Part shown: in pieces, positions 5,674-12,610 of the stretch
How positions within the stretch are numbered: the first letter of the stretch is position 1
Layout: every line of letters starts with the position of its first letter
NCBI GenBank assembly: GCA_046497275.1
Contig: JAWOFX010000084.1
Span: 1-32,000, forward strand
Direction: 5' to 3'
DNA: 32,000 nucleotides
Source of the DNA: Promethearchaeia archaeon
Lineage (GTDB): Archaea; Asgardarchaeota; Lokiarchaeia; Sigyniarchaeales; SOKP01
Notes under the pieces: model-generated
Told to the model about the DNA's origin: nothing
What the model saw: the letters and a program-made list of their open reading frames with translations, nothing else
Database searches by the model: none
Made by a program: the position numbers and the translations under genes

Positions 5674-6732
5674 TTACTTAGCAATGAGAATCATCTTGTC
5701 TATTTTACTATTTCCTAATAAGATTCTATAATAAACTCCTTTCTTTTTATGAGTTACTTTTTCAAATTTTCCTTCCACCATCACTAATTCTCCTTTTTTT
5801 GCGTGCTCACAGAAACGACCTCGAAAAGAATTAACTTCTCTAATAGAATCTAAATCAATATTATCAACATGAATATCCTTTTTAATAGACTCAAAATCAA
5901 TAATTCTAAGCGCATTAATTTTATAAGTTGCTGGAGTAAAGAGACAATCCTTAGCATCTGTAATTTCAGCTTTTAATCGTATTCTACCAAAATTTTCATA
6001 TTTACAATCATAATAGCTAATGGTCCAATCGTCTGGGCTCTTAATATATCGAATAAAAAATTCTATATCCTTAAATATCCCTTGGTGAAGTTTTCTGATC
6101 TCGCTTTTCATAAAATCATTAAAAGATATCCCTGAGCCCCCCGCTCGAAATTTATAATGAGATTTGTATTCTTCAAATTTATAATGGCGAAACTCATTTG
6201 GAGCTTCAAATATAGCAGGTAAATAGGTTTGAAATTCCAGAGATTGCTGAGTTCCATATATTATCAAGTCTATGTCCGAATCTGATTTTTGTAATCCAAT
6301 CATTTGGGATCCAGTGATTCCAATTGAATCAGACGAAAGATTACTGTTCTCGATAAATAATTTACATAAATCATATGAATCCTTCTTGATTCCGTTAATA
6401 TTAGACTTATTTTGTAATTCTTTAAAATAATTTCTTGGATGATATATTCTCTTAATATCAGAATTCTTAACTCCTTGTAATTGCATATCAAATTGTTCTG
6501 AAAAGAAGATGTATTGCGGGAAGTGTTTTTGTAAAAAGGAGTAGCGCTTTTCTAGGTCATAAATTTTTGAATATCTAATGCTCTTTCTCTGTCTCTCTCC
6601 TTCGGGATCTGGATAAAATCGAATAAAACAAATTGTCCGATCTTTTGGATGTGAAACTCCTTTTACGTCAAAAAAAAGGTCATTGCGTTTTGTTTGAAGA
6701 TAATCCCCTTCAATAGCTTTTAGATCATCCAT
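5674..6732 (-). CDS. Archaeal predicted nucleotidyltransferase (COG1665-like, Pol-beta superfamily)
   Basis: GITGS...SDSDIDLIIYG is the Pol-beta NTase motif. N-terminal F.VKG..HP...Y.P and a C-terminal OB-like region are typical of this archaeal family. Confidence 0.8.
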   Translation of the reverse strand: MDDLKAIEGDYLQTKRNDLFFDVKGVSHPKDRTICFIRFYPDPEGERQRKSIRYSKIYDLEKRYSFLQKHFPQYIFFSEQFDMQLQGVKNSDIKRIYHPRNYFKELQNKSNINGIKKDSYDLCKLFIENSNLSSDSIGITGSQMIGLQKSDSDIDLIIYGTQQSLEFQTYLPAIFEAPNEFRHYKFEEYKSHYKFRAGGSGISFNDFMKSEIRKLHQGIFKDIEFFIRYIKSPDDWTISYYDCKYENFGRIRLKAEITDAKDCLFTPATYKINALRIIDFESIKKDIHVDNIDLDSIREVNSFRGRFCEHAKKGELVMVEGKFEKVTHKKKGVYYRILLGNSKIDKMILIAK

Positions 6733-7141: not shown

Positions 7142-8101
7142 TCATTTTTTGGGTCTAATCACAGAATAAAGGTCTCCCACAGTAGTATTCATTTCCGCAT
7201 AAACATTATGTGGATGGATTGATTCAAAACTCTCAATTTTAAAGGTTATTTTAAAATTATCTTGTAAATTTGGAAAATCTCTTCTTAAGAAATTCCGTGC
7301 CATTTCTCGTATAATATCTTCTGCAAAAAGTGGTTTGAGATGAGCACTTCTAACTAATTCCGCTTCCTCATATCTTTTTAACACCGATTGGATTTTTCCA
7401 GACATACTCTCTTCAATCACGTCAATTAATTCCAACACATCAATCTTATGACTGTTTAAATCATTTATTTGGAGGATGATAGTACCTTTGGATCTCTGAT
7501 TATGTGAAGCAAAAGGAAGGATATTAATTAATTTTTTTATATCTTCATCGGAAACATTAATATCTTTTCGTGTTCGGATAACCTCCTCAGCATATTCCTG
7601 TGACATTGATTTTGCGCAAGGGCAACAGCTAATTCCTACAGCTGAAGCACCGATAAAATAATTAGAGTCAATTTCCCCTTTCTGATTCTTTTTTGCTGTG
7701 GTGCGTGAACTTATATCATATGATTTTTGAATATTACCATGGGAATTTTCTCTAACCTGAACGATAATTTTACCTTCAAGATTAACTTCTACTTTTGAGG
7801 TGTAGGGATGGCGTTCTATTAACTTTTTTGCAATTCTATCTCCTACGAGTTCAATAGTAGGTGTTGGTTTGAAAATTACTTCATTAATAATTTCCTCGAT
7901 AGTTTCAGATGTCCGAGACATATGAATGCCCCTCTGTTGAGCGGGAAGAGAGATTAGGGCAGATATTTTTGGATAAAACGAATATCGTTTATTTTCTTGC
8001 ATAATCTCTACCTTCTTCTCAACATTAACAATTCCTACTTTATCGATAGGTAGATCAAAGGCAGATTCAGAATCTTGAAGGTCTTTTTTAAAATGATAAA
8101 T
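7142..8101 (-). CDS. mptA: GTP cyclohydrolase IV / FolE2 family (MptA); probable ATT start at 8101
   Basis: RGIHMSR, SCCPCA, ASHNQRS, LKRYEE, PLFAED, ESIHPHN. The family's N-terminal DLQ...IDKVGI motif lies upstream of the ORF-track ATG (8002) in the same open frame. Confidence 0.92.
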   Translation of the reverse strand: MYHFKKDLQDSESAFDLPIDKVGIVNVEKKVEIMQENKRYSFYPKISALISLPAQQRGIHMSRTSETIEEIINEVIFKPTPTIELVGDRIAKKLIERHPYTSKVEVNLEGKIIVQVRENSHGNIQKSYDISSRTTAKKNQKGEIDSNYFIGASAVGISCCPCAKSMSQEYAEEVIRTRKDINVSDEDIKKLINILPFASHNQRSKGTIILQINDLNSHKIDVLELIDVIEESMSGKIQSVLKRYEEAELVRSAHLKPLFAEDIIREMARNFLRRDFPNLQDNFKITFKIESFESIHPHNVYAEMNTTVGDLYSVIRPKK

Positions 8102-8203
8102 ATTATTTCACCGAAGCCAAAACTTCAATATATAATAATTTACTATTTAATATAGTTAATGTTCAATTTAGTTAATATTTAGTTTAAGAAATATTTTTAG
8201 GTA

Positions 8204-9376
8204 TTGCGTATTTTGACACAATTTTCTTTTCCCTTTGGACTTATTGGAGATGATTTGCTCTTAAAAAAAAATATTCAATTTAAAGTAGATGCGCAAGGAA
8301 GGATTTTAGATCTTATATATGAAGATTGTGGAGAAGTAGAAAGTGAATTTTTAAAAAAAAATCCAGTTCATATTATTCTTCCAGGATTAATCAATTCTCA
8401 TGTTCATATTGGCGATAGTTTTGCAAAAGAGATGGGATACGATAAAAATCTAATTGATGTGGTAGCCCCTCCTAACGGCGTTAAACATAAACTATTAGCC
8501 CATACCCCTTCTAACATAAAAAAAGTGGGAATACAAAAAGCAGCACAAGAAATGATTTCTAACGGGATTACATTTTTTTCAGATTTTAGAGAAAGAGGTT
8601 TAGAGGGAATAAATTTGATAAAAGAGGGCTTAGCTTCAACTCCGATTAAATCACAAATTTTAGGAAGATTTAGAGAGAAAAGTGAAATAGAATCAATCTT
8701 TCAGAATGCTGACGGGATTGGTCTTTCAAGCTATAAAAACATTACATCCCAATTAAAAGATATTTTAAAAACCTTCAAGAAAAAATATAATAAACTTATT
8801 GCTTGTCATCATGCAGAATACAAGAGAGATTCCTTATTATTCAATAACATCTTAAATGATAATATAATTGATGTTATTATACATGGAACTCAATTAAATG
8901 ATGAGGATTTGCTTAAATTAAAAGGTTCTGGGATTTCACTAATCTTATGTCCTCGTTGCAATGGATATTTTGGAGTGGGATTTCCACCCATAGAATCAAT
9001 TATTAGGAATAATATTTTAATTACAATAGGAACAGATAATATGATGGTGAATTCTCCTGATTTATTTGAGGAGATGAGATATTTATATTTGATATTCAAA
9101 GTTTTAAATAAAAGTCAGGATCTTTCACTAACAGCTAAAAGTTTATTGGAAATGATTACTGTTAATGCCGCAAGAATTTTAAATATTGAAAATATGATTG
9201 GGTCTATTAAAGAGGGTAAGCAAGCAGATTTTTTTACTATTAATTTAAATTCAAATAATTATTATTGCCATCAAATTAATTATCATAACATTTATCCCTT
9301 AATAGTCCAAAGAACAAAACCAGAGAATATTAGACAAGTGTATATAAATGGTGAGAAAATCTTTGAAAGAAAATAA
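8204..9376 (+). CDS. Metal-dependent amidohydrolase, deaminase type (COG0402-like)
   Basis: PGLINSHVH (HxH), CHHAE (HxxE), IIHG, LCPRCN, GTDN, GSIKEGKQADF. Confidence 0.88.
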   Translation: MRILTQFSFPFGLIGDDLLLKKNIQFKVDAQGRILDLIYEDCGEVESEFLKKNPVHIILPGLINSHVHIGDSFAKEMGYDKNLIDVVAPPNGVKHKLLAHTPSNIKKVGIQKAAQEMISNGITFFSDFRERGLEGINLIKEGLASTPIKSQILGRFREKSEIESIFQNADGIGLSSYKNITSQLKDILKTFKKKYNKLIACHHAEYKRDSLLFNNILNDNIIDVIIHGTQLNDEDLLKLKGSGISLILCPRCNGYFGVGFPPIESIIRNNILITIGTDNMMVNSPDLFEEMRYLYLIFKVLNKSQDLSLTAKSLLEMITVNAARILNIENMIGSIKEGKQADFFTINLNSNNYYCHQINYHNIYPLIVQRTKPENIRQVYINGEKIFERK

Positions 9377-10037
9377 GAAACCATATATCATATTAAGTGC
9401 CGCAATGACTATTGATGGAAAGATAGCATCTAAAATTGGCGATCCCGAATTATCGGATGAAGAAGATTGGAAAGAAGTCCATAAACTTAGAACAAAGGTC
9501 GATGCCATTATGGTGGGAAAAGGAACAATATTGAAAGATAACCCAAAATTGCATATTAAATATTATGATCATTCGGGATATTATCGGATCGTACTAGATA
9601 GTAATTTATCTATTCCATTAAGTTCAAAGGTAATAAATTTCAAACCAGAGATATATCCAACCCTTATATGCACCACAGAACATGTTCCAAATGGAAAAAT
9701 TAGAGAATATGAATCTAAAAATAATACAGAGATTATCACATGTGGATCTAATGAACAAGTGGATATATCAAAACTTATGCCTATTCTTTTGGAAAAAGGG
9801 ATTGAATCAATCTTGTTAGAGGGAGGAGCAACATTGAACTGGAGCTTTATAGAGCAAGATCTAGTTGATGAGATCAGACTTACTATTGCTCCTTGGATAG
9901 TTGGTGGAGTAAAAGCCACTAGCTTAGTCGAGGGGATGGGATTCGAACAAATGAAACAAGCTCCCAGATTTGAACTTACTGATCTTAAGCATAGAAATAA
10001 TTATGTAATTTTACAATACAAGCGAACCGAGAAATGA
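9348..10037 (+). CDS. arfC: 2,5-diamino-6-(ribosylamino)-4(3H)-pyrimidinone 5'-phosphate reductase (archaeal ArfC/Rib7 type)
   Basis: PYIILSAAMTIDGKIA, VHKLR..VDAIMVGKGT...DNP, LLEGG..LN. Reductase domain only, with no fused deaminase. Confidence 0.92.
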   Translation: MVRKSLKENKKPYIILSAAMTIDGKIASKIGDPELSDEEDWKEVHKLRTKVDAIMVGKGTILKDNPKLHIKYYDHSGYYRIVLDSNLSIPLSSKVINFKPEIYPTLICTTEHVPNGKIREYESKNNTEIITCGSNEQVDISKLMPILLEKGIESILLEGGATLNWSFIEQDLVDEIRLTIAPWIVGGVKATSLVEGMGFEQMKQAPRFELTDLKHRNNYVILQYKRTEK

Positions 10038-11158
10038 AAAAATTGCCTGATATTGACAAATTGCTGGCTTTAAGTATTTCAGAGATACAAGAGCAAGTTA
10101 AAAAAATTAAGTATAACCTGTCATCGGAAGAAAGGAAGATTATTACTTTTTCAAAAAATTATACACTTTCGTTATCAAATTATTGTCAGAATGAATGTGG
10201 ATATTGTTATTATAATTACAAAATCCCAAAAGAAAAGGAAGAAGAAAACGTCGTTTTATTATCCAAAGAGGAAATTGAGAATAAAACTGAAAGAGCATTG
10301 AAATATGGATGTAAAGAAGCATTGATTATGTCAGGAGAAAATCCAGGGATATTTCCAGAAGTTAAAAATTTACTAAATGATAATGGATTTGATAATTATT
10401 TAAATTATGTACAAAATATCTGTCATTATTTATTAAAAGTGAATATGCTTCCTCATACTAACATTGGTTTCCTAGACCTCAAAGAGATGAAATCTCTAAA
10501 AAAGTGTTCCTCTAGTATGGGATTAATGTTAGAAAGTTCTAGCGAAGAATTGTCTAAGAAGGGAAGGGTTCATGAAAAATCCCCCGGGAAATTACCATCT
10601 AAAAGAATAAAGCATATAAAAACAGCCGGTAAATTAAAAATACCCTTTACTACGGGTTTATTATTAGGAATTGGAGAAACTAGAAGAGACCGGATAAATG
10701 ATTTATTATTGATAAAAAATATAAATGATAGATATGGTCATATCCAAGAAGTAATTATTCAGAACTTTGTTAGGAAACCATATATTCAATATCAGCCCTC
10801 TAAAACAATTTCTATTAAAGAAATGCTTAGAGTGGTTGGGCTTGCGAAATTGATTTTTAAAAATAAAATTGCTGTTCAAGTACCTCCTAATTTAATTGCC
10901 GGTTATGAAAAACAATTTTTAAATATGGGAATTGATGATTTTGGAGGAATCTCCCCTTTCACCATTGATTATATTAATCCAGAAAATAGATGGCCAGAAA
11001 TTAAAAGATTAGAGACTATCTGTAAAAAAAATGGGTTTATTTTAAAAGAGAGATTACCAATTTATGAAAAATATATAGATAATGAATCGTTCTGTCCAGA
11101 AAATATACAAAAAATTATAAGAAATATTAGAGGAAATGTCGTTAAAAGAAGTTTGTGA
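10034..11158 (+). CDS. cofG: FO synthase subunit CofG (radical SAM)
   Basis: ITFSKN, CQNECGYC, PHTN.G, SMGLMLES, KSPGK, PFTTGLLLGIG, HIQEVIIQNF, QVPPNL, DDFGGISP...NPE..WP. ATGA overlap with arfC. Confidence 0.93.
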   Translation: MKKLPDIDKLLALSISEIQEQVKKIKYNLSSEERKIITFSKNYTLSLSNYCQNECGYCYYNYKIPKEKEEENVVLLSKEEIENKTERALKYGCKEALIMSGENPGIFPEVKNLLNDNGFDNYLNYVQNICHYLLKVNMLPHTNIGFLDLKEMKSLKKCSSSMGLMLESSSEELSKKGRVHEKSPGKLPSKRIKHIKTAGKLKIPFTTGLLLGIGETRRDRINDLLLIKNINDRYGHIQEVIIQNFVRKPYIQYQPSKTISIKEMLRVVGLAKLIFKNKIAVQVPPNLIAGYEKQFLNMGIDDFGGISPFTIDYINPENRWPEIKRLETICKKNGFILKERLPIYEKYIDNESFCPENIQKIIRNIRGNVVKRSL

Positions 11159-12269
11159 TAATATCGAGCTAGAAATTAAGAATATTCTTGAAAAAAGTCT
11201 TAATAATATTGATATCAGTGAATCAGAAGCTTTAAAGTTATTAAAAACAACTGGTAAAGAATTCCTAGCCTTACAATCTGCTGCGAATCAAATTTGTTTT
11301 AACAAGAAACGAGATATTGTAACTTTTGTTGTTAATAGAAATATAAATTTCACTAATATCTGTTATCAAAAATGCAAATTCTGTTCTTTTAGTGTGCCAA
11401 AAAATCATCCTGATTCTTTTTTATTATTTATAGATGAAGTAGAAAAAAAAGTATTAGAAGCAAGCGATTACAATATAACGGAAGTATGTATGCAAGGAGG
11501 AATAAATCCCGATTTAACGTTCGAATATTATTTAGATATTTTAAGAAAAGTAAAAGAGATTGATTCTAAGATACATATTCATGCGTTTTCTCCTCAAGAA
11601 ATTTTCTATATATCGCAATTATCTCAAAATTCAGTTGAAGACACATTAAAGGAACTTAAAAAGGCAGGTTTAGATTCTATACCGGGTACTGCAGCAGAGA
11701 TGTTAGTAGATAAAATTAGAGAAATCGTTTGTCCTAATAAAATTTCTACACAAAAATGGACTGAAATTGTAAAAACAGCTCATACTTTAGGAATTCCCTC
11801 TACTTCTACTATGATGTATGGACATATTGAATCATTAGAGGATCGAATTGAGCATTTAAGGGTTTTAAGAGAGATTCAAAAAGACACTATGGGATTTACG
11901 GAATTTGTACCATTACCCTTTGTTAAAGATAATCCCATTTTATCTCTACTACCCGAAAAACCCCTCAAACCGAGTTATGGGATGGCAGATTTAAAATTAT
12001 TTTCCGTCGCACGACTCTTTTTTAATAATTATATTGATAATATTCAATGCTCTTGGGTAAAGTTAGGACCAAAATTTGCCCAAGTTTCACTTAATTATGG
12101 AGTAAATGATTTTTCGGGTACGCTTTTAGAAGAAAATATCTCAAAAAGTGCGGGTGCAGAATTTGGGGAATATCTTTCTCCGGAGGAGATTGTTTCGATT
12201 ATCAAAGAGGCTGGTAAAAGACCAGCTCAAAGAACAACCACATATGATGAAATCCTTAAATATTATTGA
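11136..12269 (+). CDS. cofH: FO synthase subunit CofH (radical SAM)
   Basis: VVNRNINFTNICYQKCKFC, MQGG, HIHAFSP, PGTAAE, TMMYGHIE, FVPLPF, NIQCSWVKLG, GTLLEENIS. Follows cofG directly. Confidence 0.93.
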   Translation: MSLKEVCDNIELEIKNILEKSLNNIDISESEALKLLKTTGKEFLALQSAANQICFNKKRDIVTFVVNRNINFTNICYQKCKFCSFSVPKNHPDSFLLFIDEVEKKVLEASDYNITEVCMQGGINPDLTFEYYLDILRKVKEIDSKIHIHAFSPQEIFYISQLSQNSVEDTLKELKKAGLDSIPGTAAEMLVDKIREIVCPNKISTQKWTEIVKTAHTLGIPSTSTMMYGHIESLEDRIEHLRVLREIQKDTMGFTEFVPLPFVKDNPILSLLPEKPLKPSYGMADLKLFSVARLFFNNYIDNIQCSWVKLGPKFAQVSLNYGVNDFSGTLLEENISKSAGAEFGEYLSPEEIVSIIKEAGKRPAQRTTTYDEILKYY

Positions 12270-12316: not shown

Positions 12317-12610
12317 ATTACAATAACAGTTATTGCAAGTGTCAAAGTAAAAGAAGGAAAGATGGATGAAGCTAAAGAGATGTTAAAGGAATTAGTTCCA
12401 AAAATAAAAAATGCTGAACCTGGAACACTAGAATATATCCCACATACAGTAAAGGGACGAAAAGATAAGAATACTATTATTTTTTATGAAAAATATAAAG
12501 ATGGTGAAGCTTTGCGAAAACATTCTGGAAATTTAGCCGAATCTTTAGGACCTCTTATGCCGTTATTAGAACCAGGTATGGACTTGAAAACATGTTTTGA
12601 AATAGTTTAA
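12317..12610 (+). CDS. Antibiotic-biosynthesis-monooxygenase (ABM) family protein; probable ATT start at 12317
   Basis: EPGTLEY...FYEKY.D.EAL..H is an ABM motif. The typical first strand (ITVIASVKVKEGK) lies upstream of the ORF-track ATG (12362), bounded by an in-frame TAA at 12311. Confidence 0.8.
   Translation: MTITVIASVKVKEGKMDEAKEMLKELVPKIKNAEPGTLEYIPHTVKGRKDKNTIIFYEKYKDGEALRKHSGNLAESLGPLMPLLEPGMDLKTCFEIV

Follow-up and report, generated by a model that had tools for sequence, protein, structure and literature searches.

The stretch of DNA analysed here (32,000 nt of contig JAWOFX010000084.1 from a Promethearchaeia archaeon; hereafter, the window) carries on its plus strand, at positions 8204-12269, four overlapping open reading frames (ORFs), which encode an amidohydrolase (AH), the reductase ArfC, and the two radical S-adenosylmethionine (SAM) subunits of FO synthase, CofG and CofH (Table 1). 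The overlaps between successive genes, given by the first-pass annotation of this DNA as 29, 4 and 23 nt, were confirmed from the ORF coordinates. The same annotation had described ArfC as a reductase only, and this also holds: the protein consists of a RibD_C domain (residues 12-218) without a deaminase domain, and it matches the archaeal reductase model TIGR01508 with 189.8 bits, above the cut-off of 186.45. Deamination at C2 is one chemical step of archaeal riboflavin/F420 precursor synthesis that has no demonstrated enzyme. The comparative evidence described below makes it probable that the AH is a metal-dependent enzyme catalysing the deamination in the archaeal pyrimidine branch, which is shared by riboflavin and FO/F420 synthesis.

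The AH protein matches Amidohydro_1 (E 4e-40), and its best NCBIfam model is NF005552 (PRK07213, 'chlorohydrolase'), with 259 bits over residues 13-382 and model positions 10-378 of 382. The next-best family reaches 121 bits, in the C-terminal part only, so that NF005552 is ahead by about 140 bits. An exhaustive HMMER search for relatives gave 171 cluster representatives at E<=1e-30. The best hits to the AH were all from metagenome-assembled genomes of Promethearchaeota, Lokiarchaeota, Thor-, Hermod-, Odin- or Hodarchaeota. Ten diverse relatives all had NF005552 as their best model, with scores from 171 to 583 bits across all relatives tested; those located inside rib operons exceed the curated cut-off of the model. 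The highest value, 583 bits, was that of Methanotorris igneus WP_013798840.1, and the model is therefore centred on Methanococcales. At E<=1e-30, NF005552 also detected a member in four of four archaeal control genomes (M. jannaschii, H. volcanii, S. acidocaldarius and M. acetivorans) versus none of ten bacterial controls.

The catalytic set of the AH is H66-x-H68, H202-x-x-E205, H227 and D278. All six residues are invariant in 34 relatives that are 26-53% identical to the window protein, and the full HxH...HxxE...H...D site reported in the first-pass annotation is thus real. The AH has the features of the subtype-III deaminases of cog0402 (HxH, HxxE, H and D on a TIM barrel), a group in which the glutamate of HxxE is the signature of the deaminase subgroup. 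No cytidine/dCMP-deaminase zinc-binding domain (PF00383) was found in the protein by Pfam search. The AlphaFold (AF2) model, with a pLDDT of 93.9, retrieved solved cog0402 deaminases at a TM-score of about 0.8 and at most 20% identity, a generic resemblance that indicates no specific substrate; there is no close solved structure. In profile alignments, the N-terminal, substrate-binding half shows the family-specific motifs HTHxGDSxxKD, VxPPxGLKH and FREGG, all lacking in adenosine-type enzymes. Several basic residues (K75, K94, R129, R155, R208, R251 and R370) are invariant, and these could hold the 5'-phosphate of the substrate.

As an alternative, the first-pass annotation had proposed that the AH is a DadD-like deaminase clearing 5'-deoxyadenosine, the radical-SAM by-product of CofG and CofH; 5'-methylthioadenosine (MTA) or S-adenosylhomocysteine (SAH) could be considered likewise. 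The AH does head an operon with two radical-SAM enzymes, MTA, SAH and adenosine deaminases are among the solved structures closest to it in fold and sequence, and one relative, GBC74874.1, has been automatically annotated as an MTA/SAH deaminase. However, the DadD model NF005557 (cut-off 522 bits) gives the AH a score of just 92 and aligns with residues 224-389 alone, compared with the full-length match to NF005552. In addition, genuine DadD-like paralogues of 426-464 aa, which score 324-429 bits over their full length with the DadD and MTA/SAH-deaminase models, coexist with the AH family in three Asgard genomes (G014, G021 and G100). In an IQ-TREE phylogeny, 30 rows of the NF005552 family and seven DadD-like rows were split by a branch with 100/100 support. 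The window AH was placed with its cofGH-linked Asgard relatives, and Methanotorris, the members from rib operons and OLS12595.1 all fell on the family side. The last of these, an Asgard homologue 33% identical to the AH, bears in GenBank the name 'Pyrimidine deaminase archaeal predicted', which is a SEED role name.

Gene order was examined by a locus scan that took one genome per species and returned 80 Asgard loci, whose AH relatives are 45-59% identical. All 80 preserve the order AH-ArfC-CofG-CofH and the common strand, within the limits of each contig; because both recur in every locus, the operon arrangement is not a product of chance. In most of these loci, mptA is the divergent upstream neighbour. 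The linkage of the AH to arfC, moreover, extends to divergent clades without cofGH, and the pairing of the two genes is independent of cofGH. At locus L097, RibE-RibB-RibH-ArfA-AH-ArfC lie on one strand, and at L098 the series is RibE-RibB-RibH-AH-ArfC; cofGH and any other radical-SAM gene are missing from both operons, which again argues against a DadD-like role. The AH-ArfC pair stands alone in one Hodarchaeales and one Promethearchaeota locus, while ArfA-AH-ArfC are contiguous in the Asgard families f4, f8, f15 and f19. In an Altiarchaeota locus (L100:6001-11256, GCA_016933855.1), the AH is found beside ribB, ribH and ribC. This cluster also holds two genes without a Pfam match; genes of this kind beside the AH in L095 and L100 were set aside, as they are not homologous to each other.

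In one protein, P0142 (636 aa; L111:6001-7911, GCA_054681365.1), the AH and ArfC are encoded in a single ORF, matched by TIGR01508 with 197 bits and located directly upstream of a CofG-like and a CofH gene. We regard this fusion as supportive but weak evidence. A creatininase::AH fusion, P0227, is not clearly an ArfB fusion, its best model being MftE-like and below cut-off, and was given little weight.

Six families were searched in the same 121 Asgard genomes and cross-tabulated genome by genome. True members of the AH family occur in 48 genomes, three more weak hits being longer DadD-like proteins. The family is present in 48 of the 50 genomes that possess a consumer of the proposed product (RibH or CofG), the two others being 73% and 78% complete, and in none of the 71 genomes that have neither RibH nor CofG. 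All 48 AH-bearing genomes contain RibD_C; RibH and CofG occur together in 19 of them, CofG alone in 22 and RibH alone in seven. The AH co-occurs with ArfA-type, RibA-type and unknown first steps. Such a distribution is the profile of an enzyme needed by every route to 5-amino-6-ribitylamino-uracil, unlike that of a general scavenger of radical-SAM by-products or of a substitute for ArfB. The seven genomes with RibH but no CofG speak against the DadD-like alternative, as does the lack of the AH family in the 71 genomes without either consumer, considering that all archaea use radical-SAM enzymes. On these grounds, together with the partial NF005557 match, the separate clade and the rib operons, we dismiss the DadD-like function as highly improbable. 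Neither a grouping with DadD nor a loss of the arfC linkage, outcomes that would have counted against the pyrimidine-deaminase reading, was observed.

The phyletic data bear equally on the possibility that the AH is a formamide hydrolase, that is, an analogue of ArfB that deformylates the product of GTP cyclohydrolase III. Amidohydrolases are able to cleave amides, the AH gene often lies directly between arfA and arfC, and the genome to which the window belongs has no ArfB. Nevertheless, the AH is present to the same extent in the families with RibA (GTP cyclohydrolase II; f5, f14, f22 and f25), where no deformylase is needed; in Methanocaldococcus jannaschii, ArfB occurs together with an NF005552 match; the invariant HxxE glutamate points to deamination; and a deformylase function would leave the deaminase step of the window's genome without any candidate. 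An ArfB-like role appears, therefore, very unlikely.

The phyletic pattern, the gene fusion, the catalytic residues, and the order and family membership of the genes are direct observations, whereas we infer the substrate of the AH, the metal and the sequence of the reactions, as follows. As the predicted pyrimidine deaminase, the AH would act hydrolytically on the product of ArfC, 2,5-diamino-6-ribitylamino-4(3H)-pyrimidinone 5'-phosphate, or on the ribosyl precursor of this compound, removing the amino group at C2 and yielding 5-amino-6-ribitylamino-uracil 5'-phosphate. As in the chemistry of cog0402 deaminases, one metal ion, held by H66, H68, H227 and D278, would activate a water molecule, and E205 of the HxxE motif would shuttle the proton. 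The substrates of CofH are 5-amino-6-ribitylamino-uracil and tyrosine; after dephosphorylation of the nucleotide, CofH and CofG would condense the two to give FO. In this organism, whose genome has no riboflavin synthesis genes, the operon would be a dedicated module leading from a diaminopyrimidine nucleotide to FO.

A third alternative is that the AH catalyses another step of the branch, for example as a phosphatase acting on the uracil nucleotide, or that it is a deaminase for a pterin or purine of the neighbouring MptA pathway. The amidohydrolase superfamily also includes pterin and isoxanthopterin deaminases, and mptA is a conserved divergent neighbour of the operon. The archaeal phosphatase step, for its part, is likewise unassigned (PMC8305020). 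Against these options stand the deaminase-type active site, a relative in which a separate HAD phosphatase gene adjoins the AH gene, the members in rib operons that have no mptA nearby, and a phyletic pattern that tracks ArfC, RibH and CofG. We consider this alternative unlikely.

The assignment of the AH as the pyrimidine deaminase is, however, not a new idea. The absence of RibD-type deaminase domains from Archaea has been pointed out before (Rodionova et al. 2017, PMC5397151), and a 'PyrD' candidate was put forward in 2010 by Osterman, Overbeek and Rodionov from clustering and co-occurrence, untested at the time of that report (PMC5397151). HVO_2483 and MJ0699 were later listed as the 'PyrD' candidate, with confirmation still needed (Pfeiffer and Dyall-Smith 2021, PMC8305020); no later experimental test of 'PyrD' was found in the literature after that listing. 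As to the proposal of the first-pass annotation that the AH is the missing pyrimidine deaminase, the function is supported by linkage, tree and phyletic pattern, while the novelty it implied does not stand, since the family was proposed in 2010 and 2017. What we describe is a well-supported rediscovery of the NF005552 'PyrD' proposal, and the window AH is a new, divergent member of this proposed enzyme family. With the 'PyrD' set (MJ0699/HVO_2483, NF005552) it shares the amidohydrolase clade, the catalytic residues, the clustering with arfC and pyrimidine-branch genes, and the predicted reaction. It differs in belonging to a divergent Asgard subclade, in being wired to cofG-cofH rather than to rib genes, and in residing in a genome without riboflavin synthesis.

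Other known enzymes offer partial parallels. The N-terminal domain of bacterial RibD and fungal Rib2 (PF00383) perform the same C2 deamination of a diaminopyrimidine intermediate as predicted for the AH, although their cytidine-deaminase fold is unrelated to the TIM-barrel amidohydrolase. RibD is a deaminase-reductase fusion, an architecture mirrored by the AH::ArfC protein P0142 with a non-homologous deaminase. DadD (MJ1541-type, NF005557) and the MTA/SAH deaminases (TM0936, PDB 1p1m/2plm; 4f0r) share superfamily and metal site with the AH and are its closest solved folds (TM 0.8), whereas identity does not exceed 20%, and the N-terminal motifs, clade and phyletic pattern of the AH are its own. 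Guanine deaminase (PDB 2uz9, 6ohb) and other 2-amino-4-oxopyrimidine deaminases of cog0402 share the HxH/HxxE/H/D site and perform the same chemistry as proposed for the AH, namely removal of the C2 amino group from the ring, because the putative substrate of the AH is in effect a ring-opened guanine; they resemble the AH only distantly, with profile E-values of 1e-27 to 1e-31. In the AH, the second His is followed at a distance of three residues by an invariant Asp (D71), where guanine deaminases have Gln, and this difference may serve as a lead.

It should be noted that several observations weigh against the deaminase assignment, or limit it. The 259 bits of the AH are below the curated equivalog cut-off of NF005552, 294, as is the whole cofGH-linked Asgard subclade with its approximately 234-281 bits; because of this score, we file the window protein as a divergent subclade of NF005552 and not as a strict equivalog. 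Membership of MJ0699 and HVO_2483 in the AH family is indirect, being based on the hits in control genomes, the Methanotorris member and the SEED name of OLS12595.1. The Altiarchaeota rib cluster in L100 contains, besides its PyrD-type AH, a 156-aa deaminase of the cytidine-deaminase type (PF00383), and the Methanotorris and Archaeoglobi members have uninformative neighbours. The P0142 fusion occurs on one contig only and may be an artefact of a frameshift where two genes overlap. Because related genomes lack independence, the counts given above overstate the number of independent events and should be read as a pattern over about a dozen families rather than as a statistic. Finally, the literature searches turned up no member of the AH family that has been tested biochemically or genetically. 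The Asgard operon offers a compact and strongly conserved test bed for the 'PyrD' prediction, consisting of four genes, or of three where AH and ArfC are fused.

The contig of the window belongs to an assembly of 3.85 Mb with a completeness of 98.9%, and in this genome none of ribB, ribH/ribC, arfA, arfB, ribA and folE was found. Besides CofG and CofH it encodes CofD and a CTP-dependent riboflavin kinase, and MptA is the only GTP cyclohydrolase found. A separate RibD-type deaminase, whose presence, together with a lack of conserved linkage, the first-pass annotation had named as counting against its proposal, was not found, there being no PF00383 deaminase in the genome, and neither was any other cog0402 member, including DadD-like paralogues. 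The organism is predicted to be a riboflavin auxotroph that still makes FO/F420, and because its genome lacks the riboflavin synthesis genes, the ArfC/deaminase pair would here serve FO/F420 only. The same state of these genes is seen in 13 genomes of the family (that of the window and 12 others; 91-100% complete), whereas the sister genus g3 has a full arfA/ribH set. These riboflavin-less genomes show clearly that the putative deaminase is tied to the demand for the uracil intermediate rather than to riboflavin synthesis itself.

The same genomes expose a second gap, in that none of the 13 was found to contain a known enzyme that could open GTP in the first step. A comparable 'missing GTP cyclohydrolase III' has been noted in bacteria (PMC9478397). 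It is conceivable, albeit with a rather low probability, that in this Loki family the pyrimidine branch is uncoupled from riboflavin synthesis and opened by an unrecognised GTP-opening enzyme, for which MptA is the most economical candidate, since it is the only GTP cyclohydrolase of the genome and is encoded divergently to the operon. Besides making the methanopterin pterin, MptA would then supply ArfC with a formylamino- or diamino-pyrimidine nucleotide, and the divergon of mptA and AH-arfC-cofG-cofH would form a self-contained module covering the route from GTP to FO. Two other genes were evaluated and rejected. The only creatininase-family gene of the genome (C52:3614-4591; L101:1423-2400) is not ArfB, since it scores 527 bits with IolN versus 30 bits with ArfB. 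The NTP_transf_2-like gene downstream of mptA, considered as a first-step enzyme, has homologues, often as tandem pairs, in 80 of the 121 Asgard genomes, among them families that lack ArfC, AH, CofG and RibH. The IolN-type 3-dehydro-scyllo-inosose hydrolase adjoins a GPH-family sugar transporter, which hints at inositol catabolism in a Loki archaeon. In the Asgard families f7 and f13, 17 genomes (G005, G012, G023 and G027 among them) have GTP cyclohydrolase II (PF00925) but no RibH, ArfC, CofG or PyrD-type AH; this RibA is an orphan, with no known consumer of its product there.

Table 1. Features of the window in and around the AH-arfC-cofG-cofH operon.
Feature	Position	Strand	Remarks
NTP_transf_2-like protein	5674..6732	-	352 aa; marginal match
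MptA, Fe-dependent GTP cyclohydrolase of the FolE2 family	7142..8086	-	TIGR00294 above cut-off; divergent to the operon
Divergent intergenic region, mptA to operon	8087..8203	.	short; AT-rich; sequence only
Amidohydrolase-superfamily deaminase (predicted), NF005552/PRK07213 clade, 'PyrD' candidate (AH)	8204..9376	+	390 aa from TTG
AH catalytic codons	H66 8399-8401, H68 8405-8407, H202 8807-8809, E205 8816-8818, H227 8882-8884, D278 9035-9037	+	
ArfC, reductase-only 2,5-diamino-6-ribosylamino-4(3H)-pyrimidinone 5'-phosphate reductase	9348..10037	+	overlaps the 3' end of the AH gene
CofG, radical-SAM subunit of FO synthase	10034..11158	+	NF004884 401 bits (cut-off 209); TIGR03550 383 bits
CofH, radical-SAM subunit of FO synthase	11136..12269	+	TIGR03551 458 bits (cut-off 374)
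Small ABM-domain protein, 3' of cofH	12362..12610	+	Pfam; kept nearby in relatives

Some of the gene starts admit alternatives. In its database form, the AH starts at TTG 8213, giving 387 aa, and the true start is likely to be this codon or ATT 8210. ArfC could start at GTG 9351 or TTG 9363, and the gene overlap is kept with either. The identity of CofH is clear, the MqnC and MqnE models both being below their cut-offs. The mptA gene is transcribed away from the operon, about 120 bp upstream of it, and the region between the two presumably holds the promoters of both. Similarity of MptA to its Pfam/TIGR models extends some 28 codons beyond the first ATG (8002) in the upstream direction, into a stretch that has no ATG, GTG or TTG (8003-8107, minus strand), and the start codon is probably non-canonical, such as ATT or ATA. 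Short metatranscriptome contigs from salt-lake samples, with identities of at least 99%, represent parts of mptA and of each of the four operon genes; a few of them span the AH/ArfC and CofG/CofH junctions, and the libraries may contain DNA, so that a single transcript is not proven.

The ABM-domain gene is probably outside the operon, because in relatives another gene often separates it from cofH. In most relatives a minus-strand gene of roughly 2 kb lies between the two (L015:12024-13886; L036:12035-13900), coding for a 620-aa Glu/Leu/Phe/Val-dehydrogenase-like (ELFV) protein with C-terminal CBS domains; it is absent from the window. Further downstream in the window, whose GC content is about 30%, a DHPS-like protein and a DUF1464 protein are encoded on the opposite strand, and the surroundings of the operon constitute a cofactor island for the tetrahydromethanopterin (H4MPT)/F420 system.

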